Shown here piece after piece: positions 54,068 through 63,580 of a stretch of DNA of 64,000 nt. The notes beneath the pieces are model-generated. The model was not told the origin of the DNA and searched no databases. It saw only the letters and a program-made list of their open reading frames with translations. Position 1 is the first letter of the stretch; every line of letters starts with the position of its first letter. The translations under genes and the position numbers were made by a program. The stretch is from a phage: the sequence record OZ413489.1; one strand, given 5' to 3'.

Positions 54068-55351
54068 TCATTCCAGAACCTCCCAAGTGTCTGGGTCAAC
54101 ATTTCGGACGCAGATACCGACAGGGAATTGGTAGTTGTTGTCTTCTGTCCTTGATTGATATTTGAAGGTGACAAACTTGCCGATCATTTCCTGCATCCTG
54201 TCATAGCTACGCTCCTCGTGCGTGCCTTTCATCTTCATTTTAACAATAACACCTTCCTTGTCAACACAGATAAGAACACCTTCATCATTCTTATCTTTCT
54301 CAACGTCAATAACTTTCACCTCTGCGTCGTTGAACTTTTTCCATTTCAATGCTTCAGATGTTCGCTGACCGTACTCGTATTTACCGCAGAAATTACGCAT
54401 GATAGTACCTTCATATCCTTCGGACATGAATATACCAACAGATTCTTCGCAATGATCAACTGTGTACGCAAGCTCTGCGTCAACAACCTTGATATGGTCA
54501 AGCATCAGAGTGGTAACGGTATCCTCTGCATCCATAAGATCCTTGCAGCGTCCAGACTCTGTTTCTGGATCCCACCACACCTTGTCGCTAGGAATATCAA
54601 AAATGTGATACTCCAGATCGTAGCTACAGTACCCACCGTAACGCAAATCATCACGAACAGGCTCAACATCGACAGGAATATCTACCTTGTTGAAGTTTTT
54701 GTATGTTGATAAGCCTGCCTTAATTGCTGCATGACGGCGTTTTTTATCTGCCTCATAGTCTTTATCGATCTCGGCCTGAATTTCTTCCTGTGTGCGCCAC
54801 CGTTTAGCAAGAGACACTATTTTCTGCAGAGGAAGACCATGAATATAGAGCTCTCCGTCGAGCTGTTTAATCCCGGTGGTTAGGTGGAAAGAGCGAAGTT
54901 GCTCCAGAAGCTTTCCTTGAATAGGGTAGGACTTATTACCACGGGAAATAAATTTAGGCTCACCATTTTGGAAAACAACAAGCAGACGAAGGCCATCTAA
55001 CTTACGCAAGATCCAGCAAGGTAATTTAAGTGCCTTGCCACGCTTCAGGTAGTCATGCACCAGCATGGGTAAAAGATCAACACCCTGCTCGCAATCTTCC
55101 ATGTTTTCAACATACCCCAGACGGACTTGTTTTTCCCACTTGCTGATAGCCTCAAGCTCGGCCTGTTGCTCAGCTGTAGTCTCGTTGGCACGACCTACGT
55201 TCTTAGGTGTGCATACCGTCTCTTTGTACTGCAGTTTACCATCAAGCTTGCCAAACTCTACGATAACCTTATCACCATCCGTGAATACTTTCCACTGTTG
55301 GTAGCTGCCATCTTTATTCAGTGCGTACAGTGTTGTTTTGATCTGATGCAT
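54068..55351 (-). CDS. ATP-dependent DNA ligase (putative)
   Basis: Motif I KxDGxR (RKLDGLR); 427 aa; ligase versus other nucleotidyltransferase not fully resolved. Confidence 0.6.
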   Translation of the reverse strand: MHQIKTTLYALNKDGSYQQWKVFTDGDKVIVEFGKLDGKLQYKETVCTPKNVGRANETTAEQQAELEAISKWEKQVRLGYVENMEDCEQGVDLLPMLVHDYLKRGKALKLPCWILRKLDGLRLLVVFQNGEPKFISRGNKSYPIQGKLLEQLRSFHLTTGIKQLDGELYIHGLPLQKIVSLAKRWRTQEEIQAEIDKDYEADKKRRHAAIKAGLSTYKNFNKVDIPVDVEPVRDDLRYGGYCSYDLEYHIFDIPSDKVWWDPETESGRCKDLMDAEDTVTTLMLDHIKVVDAELAYTVDHCEESVGIFMSEGYEGTIMRNFCGKYEYGQRTSEALKWKKFNDAEVKVIDVEKDKNDEGVLICVDKEGVIVKMKMKGTHEERSYDRMQEMIGKFVTFKYQSRTEDNNYQFPVGICVRNVDPDTWEVLE

Positions 55352-55945: not shown

Positions 55946-55978
55946 AACAAGTAAAGCCGGGTAATCCCGGCTATGTTG

Positions 55979-56692
55979 TTAAATATACTCTGTTACATCC
56001 TTGAAGCTCGAAGGCTTCATGATCTTACCTTTACTGTCAAGGAATATGATAACTTTATTACCGTTGTAGAATTCTTCCTTAGCAACAAAACCTTCATATC
56101 GACCATCAAAGCGTCGTTCAAGATCTTTAATCTCCAACTCGATGAGTTGTTCAGCAGGCATATCTGCACTGGCACCGTGTGAATACCGTAGATGGTTGAC
56201 CCGTGCAAACTTGCTGTCATTCGATTTGAGAACCTTACGCATCATCCCGCACACATCGCCGCGAAGCTGGAACAGCAAAGCTGTTGACAACTCTGCTAAG
56301 CGGTAAGCGGATGCTCTTTGCTTAGAGGTGTTTTTCGCAGCGATCAGTGTATCATAGAACTCACCGATCTTGAACTTAAGACCTCGTGGATTATCAAACA
56401 GGTTTGACCACTTTTCGTGATTGTCATTAACAAGATAAGCGGCATAACTTGTGACAACGTGAAGATCGCAGGCCTCTTTTAGCAGGTGATCTCCACCATC
56501 CCCTTTCTCCAGCTCTTCCAAAACTTCATTGAACTCTTCCTCAATGAAGCTAAGCTGTAATTCGAACGGTATGTATGATTTTTTCACTTTAGCTGCCACA
56601 CGGTTCCAGTTTTCCACCCAGTTGGCAGACCAAAGGTAGTTTTCAGGTTGGGACAGTTTTTCCAGGTTGTCAATTAATTTGGTATTCAGCAT
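55979..56692 (-). CDS. hypothetical protein, possible MazG-like NTP pyrophosphohydrolase
   Basis: EEEFNEVLEELEKGD...LLKEACDL resembles the MazG EExxE...D pattern; weak. Confidence 0.35.
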   Translation of the reverse strand: MLNTKLIDNLEKLSQPENYLWSANWVENWNRVAAKVKKSYIPFELQLSFIEEEFNEVLEELEKGDGGDHLLKEACDLHVVTSYAAYLVNDNHEKWSNLFDNPRGLKFKIGEFYDTLIAAKNTSKQRASAYRLAELSTALLFQLRGDVCGMMRKVLKSNDSKFARVNHLRYSHGASADMPAEQLIELEIKDLERRFDGRYEGFVAKEEFYNGNKVIIFLDSKGKIMKPSSFKDVTEYI

Positions 56693-56705: not shown

Positions 56706-57467
56706 TTAAAGTTCCATAAAGTTTTCTACGGTCTCAATGAATGTTTTATCAGAGAAGGCATCAACCGCACCGTTAAACCAAACTGGGATGCCGCGATCCT
56801 CATACTGGTAAATATCACTACGTGAAATGCCATTCTCCTCTAGATGCTGTGAGTCGTATTTATTAACGATCAGTAGTTTGGTTCCCTTATTGCAGGCAGG
56901 GAATAGCTCCCAGTTAAAATTGATAACTGTGTTGGAACACCCTACAAGGATAACCATATCATTGCTTGTAAGAGAAGTCAACAGGTCATACATGTCTGTA
57001 TACTTCGGAGCTACTTCTCCGAAGAACACCACATTAGGTTTAACCCAGGTATACTTTCCTGCATCTACCTCAGAGTATCCAATGTCCTTAATGACGTCAC
57101 TTCCTTCATCGTCCTCATAGACTATTTCTGGCAAATACCCGTGAACATGTAAAATATCTTCATGTTTTACACCAGCACGCTCCAGCAAATCATCTACATT
57201 GGTGGTAAGGTTGATCACACGACCAGACCAGCGGGAATACCACTCAGCGATCCGAAGATGTGCAAGGTTAGGCTCAACACCGCCTAGAGCTACACGACGT
57301 GCATTGTAAAAGTCATGCACCTTGTAGTAGTTCTTGGCAAAGGTGTGGATGTTGCACACCTCATCGATGCTGAAATTCTCCCACATTGCAGTGCTACCAG
57401 ATCGGAAAGTGGGAATACCAGATTCAGCGCTCAAACCAGCACCGGAGATAATAATCAGTCGTCGCAT
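56706..57467 (-). CDS. Sir2-family (sirtuin-like) NAD-dependent protein
   Basis: GAGLSAESGIPTFR, TTNVDDL and HG motifs match Sir2/CobB; no Zn-ribbon Cys pairs seen. Confidence 0.7.
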   Translation of the reverse strand: MRRLIIISGAGLSAESGIPTFRSGSTAMWENFSIDEVCNIHTFAKNYYKVHDFYNARRVALGGVEPNLAHLRIAEWYSRWSGRVINLTTNVDDLLERAGVKHEDILHVHGYLPEIVYEDDEGSDVIKDIGYSEVDAGKYTWVKPNVVFFGEVAPKYTDMYDLLTSLTSNDMVILVGCSNTVINFNWELFPACNKGTKLLIVNKYDSQHLEENGISRSDIYQYEDRGIPVWFNGAVDAFSDKTFIETVENFMEL

Positions 57468-57475
57468 AAGTGTCC

Positions 57476-57826
57476 TCAGTAGATGTTTTGTTTAATCTCT
57501 ATTCCAAACTTTTTAAACGAGTCAGCTGCAAGCATGAATTTACGAGCCGCTGATGGGTTAGAAGTATGCACGAAAATCTTCACGTTGTCAACTACAGGGG
57601 GCTTACCAAATACAAATTTTTCCTCCAACATAGATAGGCAATCGTACCCTTCGAACACCTCTCCAAGGTCGTTGTCCATGTGCCACTCAGAAACGCGTCT
57701 GTAGAGCTTTCCCCTATCGTTAATAAAATCTATAAACTCGGAGGAATTCTTTAGCCAAATAGCGTCTGGGAGCCCATAATTTGACGGATCTCTCAAGTCA
57801 TCCAGCCACACAATCAACTTCTTCAT
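57476..57826 (-). CDS. hypothetical protein
   Basis: 116-aa ORF between Sir2 and RNA ligase. Confidence 0.55.
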   Translation of the reverse strand: MKKLIVWLDDLRDPSNYGLPDAIWLKNSSEFIDFINDRGKLYRRVSEWHMDNDLGEVFEGYDCLSMLEEKFVFGKPPVVDNVKIFVHTSNPSAARKFMLAADSFKKFGIEIKQNIY

Positions 57827-58758
57827 TGCATATAGTTCTCGTTGTGGAAATAGTAATCAAGTATCTCACGGCGTTCCTGCTCCAGGAGGCAGTTCCACAC
57901 ATCTTCTGTGTAATTGTTACGAATGAAGTTTACCATGCCGTAAAACTCTTCGTCAACACGTTTAAAGATATCATCATCCCAAATCCTCCAAGCTTTACCC
58001 CTCATTACGGCCTTCCGTGCCAGGTAGTATGGAGACTTGATCTTCAGCTGCAGGTCATAAGGGTAGTAAGGCTTACGGATCATATACCCTTCGCCCCTTG
58101 TTTCTGCGGCTAATTCTTTTGCATAGCTGAACGGGATTTCACGCACAGTGTGAGGACGTTTTGCACCAAGGTATTTGGCAATCCCATCTAAAGCTGCTTC
58201 TGGTAGCATTATTCCAGAATCATTATATCTGCAACCTATCAAATATGCGCCATGGTCTTCTTGAACAATATGCGGATCTGAAGGGTGACAAATTTCAAAC
58301 ATGAATGTCATGTTTTCATTGCCCATAACCTTCTTGATAAGATCTAAATTACCACATTGCTCTTGGATGGTTTCCTTTGCAAGGTTACAATATGGAGAAT
58401 CAAGAGACCCGGTTGTTGAGAACAATAGGTCACCTTTATGAGATGATACCACACCAAGGAATCCGTTCTTTTTCTCTACCGCAGTCACAAGCTTATTGTC
58501 AGGCAGGTTGGTGGAGTTTTCTCCCAAGTTAAACACTTTTGTGAAGGGCCATGCCACAACATTTCCTTCATTACCTACAACAATGCCTCGACACTCCAGT
58601 AAACGAGGGGACAAATGCCATAAATTGTTGTAAAATACTTTTCTAGCATATTTATAGATCTTTAACCCAAGATCCGGGTAATATCTACTGGTTACAAGAC
58701 CTTTGTCAACTAGGTCGTCTGCATTAAAATACTTCATCATACGTTCCTCATTTGTCAT
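57823..58758 (-). CDS. RNA ligase, T4 RnlA (Rnl1)-like
   Basis: LLECRGIVVG...KVFNLGEN resembles T4 Rnl1 (ALECRGIMFE...FFNLNENP); nucleotidyltransferase motif EKKNG. Confidence 0.6.
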   Translation of the reverse strand: MTNEERMMKYFNADDLVDKGLVTSRYYPDLGLKIYKYARKVFYNNLWHLSPRLLECRGIVVGNEGNVVAWPFTKVFNLGENSTNLPDNKLVTAVEKKNGFLGVVSSHKGDLLFSTTGSLDSPYCNLAKETIQEQCGNLDLIKKVMGNENMTFMFEICHPSDPHIVQEDHGAYLIGCRYNDSGIMLPEAALDGIAKYLGAKRPHTVREIPFSYAKELAAETRGEGYMIRKPYYPYDLQLKIKSPYYLARKAVMRGKAWRIWDDDIFKRVDEEFYGMVNFIRNNYTEDVWNCLLEQERREILDYYFHNENYMQ

Positions 58759-58858: not shown

Positions 58859-59269
58859 ATGTCTAAAATGCTATATATCGTGCGTGGTCTACCAGGGTCT
58901 GGCAAATCAACACTGGCAAATGCGCTATCTTTAGAAGGTCTGTATCCACATTTTGAGAACGACATGTTCTGGTACGACGATGATGGAAATTACAACTGGG
59001 ATGCAAGTAAAGTAACACTTGCAGCAAAATGGTGCAAAGATAACGTAGAAGATATGATGCGTATGGGATACGACCGTATCGTGGTAAGTAATACGTTTAC
59101 AAAAGAAAAATATGTGCAAGAATATATTGACATGGCGATCAGTCATGGGTATAGTTATACCGTGATCGTGGTTGAAAACCGCCATGGTAATAAAAGCATT
59201 CATGATGTTCCAGACAGGGTTGTGGATCGTATGGAACGCCAGCTTAAAAACTGCATTAAACTTAAATGA
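58859..59269 (+). CDS. P-loop polynucleotide 5'-kinase-like protein
   Basis: Walker A RGLPGSGKST; layout similar to the T4 Pnk kinase domain; track start 58802 lies in the promoter. Confidence 0.55.
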   Translation: MSKMLYIVRGLPGSGKSTLANALSLEGLYPHFENDMFWYDDDGNYNWDASKVTLAAKWCKDNVEDMMRMGYDRIVVSNTFTKEKYVQEYIDMAISHGYSYTVIVVENRHGNKSIHDVPDRVVDRMERQLKNCIKLK

Positions 59270-59276
59270 GGAATGT

Positions 59277-59831
59277 ATGAAATACTTTGTAACAAGCGAC
59301 ACACACTTTCTCCACCAGCGGGTCATGGAGTTCGATTCATGTCAAAAACACAGATCTCAGTATGATCACAATCTTGACAGTATGAATGCGGGAATCATCG
59401 CCGAGTGGAACTCTGTTGTGTCACCTGCAGACACTGTGTTCCACTTGGGAGATATTGCGTGCACTAATGATAAGAATATCAACAACTTACTTCCAGATAT
59501 TCTAAATATGTTGAACGGACATATTATTCTTGTTCGTGGCAACCATGACACAAGGACGACTGTCAGAATTATGAAAGAGTTCGGTCATGAGGTTGTAGAT
59601 TATTACGAGCTTCGCCACAACAAGAATTTGATCTGTATGAGCCATTACCAATTTGCAAAGTGGAACAGAAAGCCTCACGGATCAGTCCAACTGTTCGGTC
59701 ATGCTCACGGAACCACACAACAGTTGTTTGGCAGGCAGCTTGATGTCGGTTGGGATGTGTGGGGGAGACTCTTACCATTAGAAGAGGCATACCGTATTGC
59801 AATGAGTTTTGCTATTGACAGCGGGGAGTAA
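59277..59831 (+). CDS. calcineurin-like metallophosphoesterase
   Basis: VTSDTHF, HLGDI and GNHDT phosphoesterase motifs; start at MKYFVTSD. Confidence 0.7.
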   Translation: MKYFVTSDTHFLHQRVMEFDSCQKHRSQYDHNLDSMNAGIIAEWNSVVSPADTVFHLGDIACTNDKNINNLLPDILNMLNGHIILVRGNHDTRTTVRIMKEFGHEVVDYYELRHNKNLICMSHYQFAKWNRKPHGSVQLFGHAHGTTQQLFGRQLDVGWDVWGRLLPLEEAYRIAMSFAIDSGE

Positions 59832-62767: not shown

Positions 62768-62842
62768 GCCCTGTTAGCTTAGTGGATAAAGCAGCGGCCT
62801 TCTAAGCCGTTGACACTGGTTCGAGTCCAGTACGGGGTGCCA
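62768..62842 (+). tRNA. tRNA-Arg (anticodon UCU)
   Basis: Cloverleaf folded by hand; loop cttctaa; TTCGAGT T-loop; encoded CCA. Confidence 0.75.
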
Positions 62843-62846
62843 AATT

Positions 62847-62933
62847 GGGGAGTTATCCCGTAGAGGTAGCGGTGTAGACTGTAAATCTATTGTCATTGCG
62901 ACTCGGGTGGTTCGACTCCACCACTCCCCACCA
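62847..62933 (+). tRNA. tRNA-Tyr (anticodon GUA), long variable arm
   Basis: Perfect acceptor ggggagt/actcccc; loop ctgtaaa; encoded CCA. Confidence 0.75.
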
Positions 62934-63047
62934 AATTTATATTTTTAGATGCATAAATAATACAGATAATGGCATTGATATTTATCGTCGTTTATACTAG
63001 TCACTAACTGCTCGAAAATCAGTGTCATTATCAGTATAATTTATAAA

Positions 63048-63138
63048 GGAGGGTAGGGAGCAATGGTGCTCAAGCGGTCTTGAAAACCGTCCCGTTGAGG
63101 ATGACTCGATGATGGTTCGATTCCATTACTCTCCGCCA
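63048..63138 (+). tRNA. tRNA-Ser (anticodon UGA), long variable arm
   Basis: Anticodon arm gcggt-cttgaaa-accgt close to E. coli tRNA-Ser(UGA); encoded CCA. Confidence 0.7.
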
Positions 63139-63236
63139 CATTGTTGACCTTGTAATTAAGCGAAAGCCGGAAGCAGAACCGGATTATCAAATGTTACAGT
63201 CGTCATCGCCGACTAGCAACATGGTCAACATGCTGA

Positions 63237-63335
63237 GCTAGGTAAGCCCTTTGGCAAGGGCGAGGATTTTTAATCCTGAAAATAGACGAGGTAGTCGTTG
63301 AATACATAGGTGGTTCGATTCCATCACCTAGCACC
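63237..63335 (+). tRNA. tRNA-like gene with aberrant anticodon arm
   Basis: Acceptor gctaggt/acctagc, D-arm and T-arm fold; anticodon region is either a 5-nt loop or a 4-bp stem with loop tttttaa; 3' end is CC then T. Confidence 0.35.
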
Positions 63336-63340
63336 TTTTT

Positions 63341-63416
63341 GCTGATGTAGCACAATCGGTAGTGCAATTGATTTGTAATCAATAGGTTGTAGGTTCAAAT
63401 CCTGCCATCAGCACCA
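63341..63416 (+). tRNA. tRNA-Thr (anticodon UGU)
   Basis: Perfect acceptor gctgatg/catcagc; loop tttgtaa; encoded CCA. Confidence 0.8.
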
Positions 63417-63417
63417 A

Positions 63418-63492
63418 GGCCCTGTAGCTGGAAGGTTCAAGCAAGCGACTCATAATCGCCAGACGGTGGTTCAATTCCACCCAGGGCCACCA
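63418..63492 (+). tRNA. tRNA-Met (anticodon CAU; could be Ile-lysidine type)
   Basis: Perfect acceptor ggccctg/cagggcc; loop ctcataa; encoded CCA. Confidence 0.75.
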
Positions 63493-63503
63493 AATAGTAA
63501 ATA

Positions 63504-63580
63504 CTCCGCGTAGCTCAGCTTGGTAGAGCGCCTGATTTGGGATCAGGAGGTCGAGTGTTCGAATCACTTCGTGGAGACCA
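63504..63580 (+). tRNA. tRNA-Pro (anticodon UGG)
   Basis: Anticodon arm cctga-tttggga-tcagg; canonical D-arm; encoded CCA. Confidence 0.75.

Follow-up and report, generated by a model that had tools for sequence, protein, structure and literature searches.

What use does a phage have for a sirtuin? The question is raised by a 64,000-nt stretch of phage DNA (sequence record OZ413489.1; this whole stretch is called the window below), which encodes on its minus strand a Sir2-family (sirtuin) protein that is nearest to the class III enzymes and zinc-less (56706..57467; an ATG-to-stop open reading frame (ORF) of 253 aa). Our answer is a tentative one: an active, NAD+-consuming sirtuin that has lost its zinc ligands may serve a phage RNA-repair module, in which it would remove 2′-phosphates in the manner of KptA. 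Leading to this answer are the sirtuin fold of a structural model, the intact catalytic residues, the loss of the zinc ligands, and the order and recurrence of the surrounding genes. The phage Sir2 gene, its zinc loss, its neighbourhood and its predicted role have all been published before, down to the rV5-like genus; here we examine each more closely and weigh the predicted role against other explanations.

A sirtuin with an intact catalytic core

The Pfam SIR2 profile (PF02146) matched the ORF over its full length (residues 9-181, profile positions 1-178 of 180; E = 5.5e-27, 95.3 bits against a gathering cut-off of 24), and the ORF also matched the PHROGs family phrog_2162, 'Sir2 (NAD-dependent deacetylase)' (E = 3.2e-109). 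A GAGGA Shine-Dalgarno sequence lies 7 nt 5′ of the ORF and shares bases with the stop codon of the gene before it, the one for a cyclic-phosphate processing receiver (cREC). A first-pass annotation had described clear sirtuin core motifs, and all of the NAD+-binding and catalytic motifs are indeed present: GAGLS (residues 9-13), FR (21-22), FYNARR (53-58), TTNVDD (88-93), HVHG with the catalytic His109, FFGE (148-151), GCSN (176-179) and VN (201-202). The closest sequences in the PDB were those of E. coli CobB and human SIRT5 (E about 4e-21, about 27% identity), with which GAGLS, FR, FYNARR, TNVD, HVHG, FFGE and GCSN align in register.

Conservation was assessed across 121 sequences, comprising the query and 120 database homologues of 48-98% identity. 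His109, N90, D92, Y54, R57, R58, F148, F149, E151 and S178 were invariant in all 121, and G9-A10-G11, S13 and F21-R22 were invariant or nearly so. Careful alignment therefore revealed no loss of catalytic residues, a possibility that the first-pass annotation had raised. His109 (codon 57141..57143, minus strand) aligns with the catalytic His of CobB and was kept in nearly all of 150 more distant representatives described below. The class III anion-binding Tyr/Arg motif, Y54-x-x-R57(R58) (57294..57308, minus strand), aligns with Y102/R105 of SIRT5 and with CobB. Two canonical motifs are altered: T89-N90-V91-D92 (57192..57203, minus strand) corresponds to the sirtuin 'QNID' motif with Thr in place of Gln in 121 of 121 sequences, and GTSxxVxP is replaced by GCSNxVINF. 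Judging from these sequence features, we infer that the protein is probably an active sirtuin that consumes NAD+ and has its ancestry among class III (CobB/SIRT5-like) enzymes.

One further residue stands out. Cys38 (motif EVCNI; codon 57354..57356, minus strand) is invariant in 121 of 121 sequences at a position where CobB and SIRT5 carry Ala, and it also occurs in most of the distant relatives, zinc-bearing and zinc-less alike.

Loss of the zinc site and the predicted structure

Between His109 and the FGE motif lie 38 residues (110-147; 57027..57140, minus strand) that form a module in place of the Cys4 zinc ribbon. This module contains no cysteine, compared with four in the aligned segment of E. 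coli CobB, and the whole ORF has three cysteines (C38, C177 and C192) without any CxxC pair. The paired-Cys zinc module that the first-pass annotation had failed to see is thus genuinely missing. Across the 121 sequences, the module held no cysteine in 70, one in 49 and two in 2, indicating that the loss of the zinc ligands is a property of the clade rather than an accident of sequencing. The replacement module is itself conserved, with the motif [DN][IV]GY at residues 128-131, in which G130 is invariant and Y131 is present in at least 90% of sequences.

An exhaustive search of 1.84 billion representative proteins returned 5,594 relatives, of which the best 150 (representatives at 50% identity) were aligned. 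Among these 150, the closest zinc-bearing relatives share the [IV]GY motif and Cys38 with the zinc-less proteins, which consequently look descended from a Cys4 ancestor. The database clusters of these nearest zinc-bearing relatives consisted almost entirely of metagenomic proteins. Loss of the zinc site was associated with the change in QNID: Thr stood at the Gln position in 37 proteins without the site and 10 with it, and Gln was kept in 9 without and 81 with (Fisher p = 6e-16, a value that overstates the independence of the sequences, given their kinship).

Zinc-ligand mutations inactivate canonical sirtuins. An AlphaFold2 model of the ORF, built on a 63-sequence alignment, had a mean predicted local distance difference test (pLDDT) score of 90.5 and a predicted template modelling (pTM) score of 0.89, and was weak only at the cofactor-binding loop (residues 23-27) and in part of residues 201-220. 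The former zinc module was modelled as three beta-strands (110-118, 124-128 and 142-146) with a block pLDDT of 94-96; in the model, its beta-scaffold appears to survive without the metal ligands.

When the model was compared with the PDB using Foldseek, the top match was E. coli CobB (E = 3e-18, target-normalized TM 0.82-0.84), followed by Sir2-Af1, SIRT5, SIRT2 and Sir2Tm (E from 3e-18 to 7e-14 and TM 0.57-0.84 over CobB, Sir2-Af1, SIRT5 and SIRT2). Profile search and structure prediction, which the first-pass annotation had proposed as the way to a sirtuin class, thus agree: by sequence and by model, the phage Sir2 belongs to the classical sirtuins and stands nearest to class III. With CobB and SIRT5 (PDB 1S5P, 6RXJ and 3RIY) it has in common the fold, GAGxS, FR, N-x-D, the catalytic His, FGE and Y-x-x-R. 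Unlike them, it lacks the Cys4 site, has Thr for the QNID Gln, carries GCSNxVINF and Cys38, and is encoded by a phage within an RNA-repair operon. It also scored below the cut-offs of the NCBIfam CobB equivalogs (122.4 bits against 243 for NF001753 and 102.7 against 320 for NF040867).

The first-pass annotation had also drawn a link to the Sir2 domains with which bacterial defence systems deplete NAD+. This link was not supported. The defence-type profile SIR2_2 (PF13289) gave E = 0.16 (12.5 bits against a cut-off of 24.5), PADLOC returned only PDC-S65 (E = 0.011 over 34 residues), the top structures were all classical class III sirtuins, and no defence-type SIR2 was present among the 50 best Foldseek matches listed. 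Defence SIR2 NADases such as ThsA, DSR1/2, SIR2-HerA and SIR2-APAZ have, as does the phage Sir2, an NAD+-binding Rossmann core, a catalytic His and Asn, and no zinc ribbon; the phage protein differs in having no sensor or partner domains and in being encoded by the phage rather than by its host. We therefore rejected a defence-type NADase as an explanation.

Gene neighbourhood in the window

The most informative evidence, which the first-pass annotation had left unused, is the gene neighbourhood, and it points to RNA repair. Four minus-strand genes form a unit in the order Rnl1-type RNA ligase, cREC, Sir2 and MazG-like, separated by a 4-nt overlap and then by gaps of 8 and 13 nt. The first gene encodes a 311-aa ligase of the T4 RNA ligase 1 family (57823..58758; PF09511, E = 1.1e-14; phrog_562, E = 2.7e-66) and shares the 4-nt overlap with the gene for the 116-aa cREC protein (57476..57826; PF20274, E = 1.3e-14; phrog_1479). 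Directly 3′ of Sir2 lies the gene for a 237-aa MazG-like nucleotide pyrophosphohydrolase (55979..56692; phrog_671, E = 1.6e-21), for which there was neither a Pfam match nor a PDB sequence match at E up to 1.

Two plus-strand genes lie on the other side of the ligase. Divergent from it is a gene for a 136-aa P-loop, polynucleotide-kinase-like protein (58859..59269; AAA_33, E = 2.7e-10; phrog_2071 and phrog_505), annotated as polynucleotide kinase in phage WalterGehring, and after it comes a gene for a 184-aa calcineurin-like metallophosphoesterase (59277..59831; Metallophos_2, E = 1.2e-6; Metallophos, E = 3.9e-6; phrog_547, E = 1.3e-51). An ATP-dependent DNA ligase is encoded further downstream (54068..55351). 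None of nine neighbouring proteins contained a Macro domain in the Pfam search, so that the operonic partner of class M sirtuins (SirTM) is absent, and no ARG or NADAR partner was found among the neighbouring proteins either.

Because Sir2 sits in this cluster of RNA ligase, cREC, MazG, kinase and phosphoesterase genes, its context points to RNA repair. Of the roles floated in the first-pass annotation, counter-defence survives to the extent that RNA repair is itself counter-defence, whereas a general manipulation of NAD+ is not what the context indicates.

Recurrence of RNA-end-processing genes beside related sirtuins

Two scans of IMG/VR yielded 136 loci (numbered with the prefix L) that encode a relative of the phage Sir2. 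PVP-SE1-, Mydo- and KNP2-like phages of about 145 kb keep the cluster near the sirtuin at 43-62% protein identity, including the ligase, kinase, phosphoesterase, MazG-like protein, DNA ligase and usually cREC. Loci with the complete cluster include L023, L025, L026, L028, L031 and L059, and those in which cREC was undetectable include L040, L050 and L054. Within 60 loci, Rnl was found in 11, the kinase together with the metallophosphoesterase in 12, and cREC in 8. In T5 (L005), a HAD_SAK_2 protein ('HAD domain in Swiss Army Knife RNA repair proteins', E = 4e-20) is encoded about 0.3 kb downstream of the sirtuin. L122, from a 366-kb jumbo phage, has a gene for a 2H phosphoesterase directly upstream of the sirtuin and a Nudix gene two genes downstream; the 2H protein has the anti-CBASS family Acb1 as its best match (E = 1.6e-16). 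A 607-kb phage (L115) carries an Rnl1 ligase 2.4 kb upstream. Three independent RNA-end-processing contexts are reproduced for the phage sirtuin clade, which argues for a role in RNA repair.

The sirtuin was also present on at least 14 of 16 IMG/VR contigs that carry this type of cREC, even at a distance of about 30 kb. The adjacency of cREC and sirtuin seen in rV5-type phages is thus lineage-specific, and their co-occurrence at the level of the genome is broader. The phi92-like phages, of about 150 kb, retain both genes about 30 kb apart (L033, L032, L035 and L051 versus L146, L151, L149 and L152), and the cREC match in related GenBank phages overlaps with features labelled as RNA ligase.

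We then took a census of neighbours, clustering the sirtuins at 70% identity into 35 clusters, of which 33 were usable, and considering four genes on either side. RNA ligase was found in 5 of the 33 clusters, cREC in 2, HAD_SAK_2 in 2, 2H (Acb1-like) in 1 and Nudix in 2; the same census gave DNA ligase in 7, NrdD in 5, PhoH in 4 and NAMPT in 2. Many neighbours belonged to no family, including nine of ten at L033, L038, L055, L051 and L062 (phi92-like and other phages of ~150 kb), which had no Pfam family. The most frequent neighbouring family was DUF7415 (7 matches), and in T5-like phages two tandem DUF7415 genes follow Sir2 and HAD_SAK_2 (7651..8481 of L005, and other loci). In the two clusters with NAMPT, this nicotinamide phosphoribosyltransferase lies within two genes of the sirtuin, where it would recycle the nicotinamide released by any NAD+-consuming sirtuin.

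Among 50,697 GenBank phage records, 976 contained the sirtuin, 357 cREC and 756 this type of ligase. KptA, searched for with the E. coli protein, was carried by 98 phage records, which comprised jumbo Erwinia, Dickeya and Klebsiella phages as well as Clostridioides phages. No Vequintavirus, T5-like or phi92-like phage was among the 40 KptA matches listed or in the tally of organisms, and KptA and the phage sirtuin appear to occupy different groups of phages. In Klebsiella phage FBKp24 and Erwinia phage RAY, none of ten KptA neighbours had a Pfam match.

Relation to described systems

This neighbourhood was described by Iyer, Burroughs, Anantharaman & Aravind 2022 (Viruses 14:1977, section 3.7.3; PMC9503650), who named phage V5 and gave Escherichia phage V5 and Proteus phage Mydo as prototypes of their type-2 neighbourhoods. 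The partners of the sirtuin in their account are a T4-like tRNA ligase, cREC, a nucleotide kinase, a MazG pyrophosphatase and sometimes a calcineurin-like phosphoesterase, with the MazG-like gene of such neighbourhoods assigned to the MazG superfamily. They predicted that the sirtuin strips the 2′-phosphate from RNA as KptA does, using NAD+, and cited work on sirtuins capable of ADP-ribosylation (PMC9503650). The function of cREC is itself a prediction (PMC7824862). The window has the same phage genus, gene and neighbours as the clade of Iyer et al. 2022 and likewise no adjacent Macro gene, and is an instance of it. Beyond their description, we quantify the zinc loss and report the Gln-to-Thr change that accompanies it; we also find the class III Tyr/Arg pair to be invariant, provide a structure model of high confidence, and show in a census that only a minority of sirtuin clusters are linked to RNA repair.

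Earlier, the work of Skliros et al. 2016 had recognized the gene in T5 and further phages, with deacetylation of host Acs as its suggested role (PMC5107563). Their modelled Sir2 proteins of Vibrio phages phiSt2, phiGrn1 and KVP40 lacked a zinc ligand, which led them to raise the question of stability, and they measured transcription of the KVP40/phiSt2 homologue during infection (PMC5107563). The Sir2 proteins of these schizoT4-like phages belong to the clade studied here (45-48% identity over residues 3-202) and share with the window Sir2 both the absent zinc ligand and the conserved catalytic His. The neighbourhood differs, however, at locus L064, which is presumably KVP40-like: neither an RNA ligase nor cREC was found there within 6 kb of the sirtuin.

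Proposed function and its alternatives

How might a sirtuin contribute to RNA repair? We infer the substrate, the chemistry, the products and the role of every partner in the following scheme. Host anticodon nucleases or other metal-independent RNases would cleave tRNA or mRNA, leaving a 2′,3′-cyclic phosphate and a 5′-OH. The P-loop kinase would phosphorylate the 5′ end, cREC or the metallophosphoesterase would open or remove the 2′,3′-cyclic phosphate, and the Rnl1-type ligase would seal the break. A leftover 2′-phosphate would then be removed by the sirtuin: an oxygen of the phosphate would attack C1″ of NAD+, expelling nicotinamide, and the ribose hydroxyl activated by His109 would attack the phosphorus to give 2′-OH RNA and ADP-ribose 1″,2″-cyclic phosphate. 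The latter would be degraded by cREC and the MazG-like pyrophosphatase.

With KptA/Tpt1, which has an ADP-ribosyltransferase (ART) fold (PF01885), the phage Sir2 has only the proposed job in common, an NAD+-dependent step of heal-and-seal RNA repair; its own fold is that of a Rossmann sirtuin, and the ORF had no match to PF01885 at E up to 1. KptA-like chemistry is nevertheless plausible, because the two steps of Tpt1, an attack on C1″ of NAD+ and then an attack by the ribose 2″-OH, parallel the two steps of sirtuin deacylation, the second of which is promoted by a conserved histidine. The invariant anion-binding pair Y54/R57 would, judging from the alignment, suit a phosphate. Together with the remodelling of both walls of the peptide cleft, it fits a changed macromolecular substrate whose reactive group is anionic, a fit that is not specific to RNA repair. 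The boldest form of the proposal is that the zinc-less sirtuin is a true RNA 2′-phosphotransferase: the first sirtuin to act on a nucleic-acid phosphate and a convergent replacement for Tpt1/KptA, with a Y54/R57 pocket, a cyclizing step that uses His109, and clearance of the product by cREC and MazG. We hold this form a little more tentatively than the involvement of an active sirtuin in the repair module.

Several considerations weigh against 2′-phosphate removal. Kinase, metallophosphoesterase and Rnl1 could carry out T4-style repair, which leaves no 2′-phosphate, and the host has a KptA of its own. The residues of the acyl-lysine tunnel (V146, V147, F148 and F149), together with the Tyr/Arg pair, would equally fit a protein desuccinylase, and no sirtuin is known to act on a nucleic-acid phosphate. 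The coupling between the genes is also loose: a recognizable RNA-repair gene occurs within four genes of the sirtuin in only a minority of the 33 clusters; T5-like phages, the largest group, have no detectable Rnl1 near the sirtuin; this ligase was matched in only 14 Salmonella phage records, whereas the sirtuin is present in 287; and the Pseudomonas (177) and Streptomyces (127) phages that carry Rnl1 do not appear among the carriers of the sirtuin. Finally, in the literature on phage sirtuins, cREC and Tpt1-like sirtuin activity, we found no experiment on any member of the clade.

Of the alternatives, the one that survives best, though we consider it rather unlikely, is a CobB-like, NAD+-dependent lysine deacylase (deacetylase or desuccinylase). 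Such an enzyme would optimize the infected cell by deacylating proteins of the host or the phage, with Acs, the translation machinery and even the adjacent repair enzymes as conceivable targets, and its zinc-free module would be a structural simplification. The closest matches in both sequence and structure, E. coli CobB, Sir2-Af1 and SIRT5, are consistent with this role, as are the conserved catalytic His, FGE loop and hydrophobic tunnel residues, the persistence of the beta-scaffold of the zinc module predicted without cysteines, and the invariance of the SIRT5/CobB Tyr-x-x-Arg, which binds succinyl and malonyl carboxylates. It is also how Skliros et al. 2016 read the KVP40/phiSt2 homologue (PMC5107563). 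Most sirtuin neighbourhoods are not specific to RNA repair, and the NAMPT genes within two genes of the sirtuin in two clusters agree with a deacylase, although they fit any NAD+-consuming sirtuin. A deacylase thus accounts for sequence and structure just as well, and in biochemical terms it is the simplest activity to expect.

Against it, the phage protein falls far under the CobB equivalog cut-offs, and the changes lie in the two walls of its peptide cleft, namely the zinc module and GTSxxVxP (here GCSNxVINF), and in the QNID Gln, now Thr. The repeated, independent linkage of the sirtuin to cREC, 2H, HAD_SAK, Nudix, MazG and RNA ligase would be left unexplained. The E. coli host, moreover, already has CobB.

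An NAD+ consumer with another target seems improbable. This could be an ADP-ribosyltransferase acting on protein or on nucleic-acid ends (for example by capping a 5′-phosphate, as Tpt1 can), or an enzyme that makes or destroys small molecules derived from ADP-ribose, with cREC, 2H, Nudix and MazG processing its by-products or host immune signals. The recurring partners (cREC, 2H/Acb1-like, Nudix and MazG) are in fact enzymes of nucleotides and ADP-ribose derivatives rather than strictly RNA enzymes, the 2H neighbour in the 366-kb jumbo phage best matches anti-CBASS Acb1, and NAMPT is a neighbour in two clusters. Sirtuins, too, can ADP-ribosylate (cited in PMC9503650). What speaks against such a consumer is the lack of a Macro, ARG or NADAR partner that would reverse macromolecular ADP-ribosylation, the lack of resemblance to the defence NADase SIR2 proteins, and a sequence that names no specific target. 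Wholesale hydrolysis of NAD+ would also be harmful to the phage, and T5-like phages use an NAD+-dependent DNA ligase.

A catalytically dead or NAD/ADP-ribose-binding remnant, destabilized by loss of the zinc site as the inactivity of zinc-ligand mutants and the stability question raised for the Vibrio phage proteins might suggest, is very hard to credit, because every catalytic and NAD+-binding residue is invariant in a clade represented in 976 phage genome records and the zinc-less module is likewise conserved (G130, Y131) and confidently modelled as a three-stranded sheet, a strictness of conservation that indicates purifying selection on an active enzyme.

Other features of the locus and its relatives

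A terminator-like hairpin, AGCCGGG-ATTA-CCCGGCT, with a perfect, GC-rich 7-bp stem, was found on both strands by a consensus scan (55955..55972). The MazG-like gene and the next ORF are 33 nt apart, and the hairpin, which falls in this gap, may mark a boundary of the ligase-cREC-Sir2-MazG unit; terminator-like sites were not enriched over shuffled sequences. In phage inoa (MN850593; 2980..3693 of L002), the MazG-like ORF is labelled 'putative Sir2-like protein', and the label has propagated to further records. As the ORF has no similarity to Sir2 (it matches phrog_671 and has no Pfam match), the label looks like an annotation error copied across genomes.

About 3.5 kb from the RNA-repair genes, on the plus strand, lies a cluster of seven tRNAs (62768..63580: Arg-TCT, Tyr-GTA, Ser-TGA, an odd Lys, Thr-TGT, Met/Ile-CAT and Pro-TGG). 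The odd member is a tRNA-Lys(UUU)-like gene of 97 nt (63237..63333, plus strand; 35.5 bits to the Rfam tRNA model) whose variable region contains about 26 extra nt, an insertion that the Rfam alignment places between the anticodon and T arms. ARAGORN called it 'tRNA-???' with a 4-base anticodon, and GenBank has a tRNA-Lys there in WalterGehring. Because tRNA-Lys(UUU) is a classic target of anticodon nucleases, this atypical tRNA-Lys near the RNA-repair cluster may be a nuclease-resistant substitute.

Around Sir2, a 2.8-kb stretch shares 99.6% identity with Escherichia phages A51.2 and PMBT16, and 99.5% with inoa and WalterGehring (Bas51). At 90% identity or above it was found in 121 phage records, the carriers being Vequintavirus (rV5-like) myoviruses, as is the E. 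coli phage of the window, and more than 100 GenBank phage records already label the Sir2 gene a SIR2-family NAD-dependent deacetylase. Between 18 and 25 records named 'Campylobacter phage' (host Campylobacter jejuni; for example MG065644, MG065653 and MG065662) are 93-97% identical across the region. Given this identity to an E. coli rV5-like phage, the host assignment of these records looks doubtful.

Implications for phage RNA repair

If the zinc-less sirtuin is a true RNA 2′-phosphotransferase, about 2% of sequenced phages (976 of 50,697 records) would carry an unrecognized NAD+-dependent RNA-repair step. Should the KptA-like prediction be true, sirtuin chemistry would reach RNA phosphates, and T5-like, rV5-like, phi92-like and jumbo phages would possess a new, NAD+-dependent means of repairing RNA cut by host anticodon nucleases. 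Phage RNA repair would then also be tied to the NAD+ pool, which many defence systems deplete.

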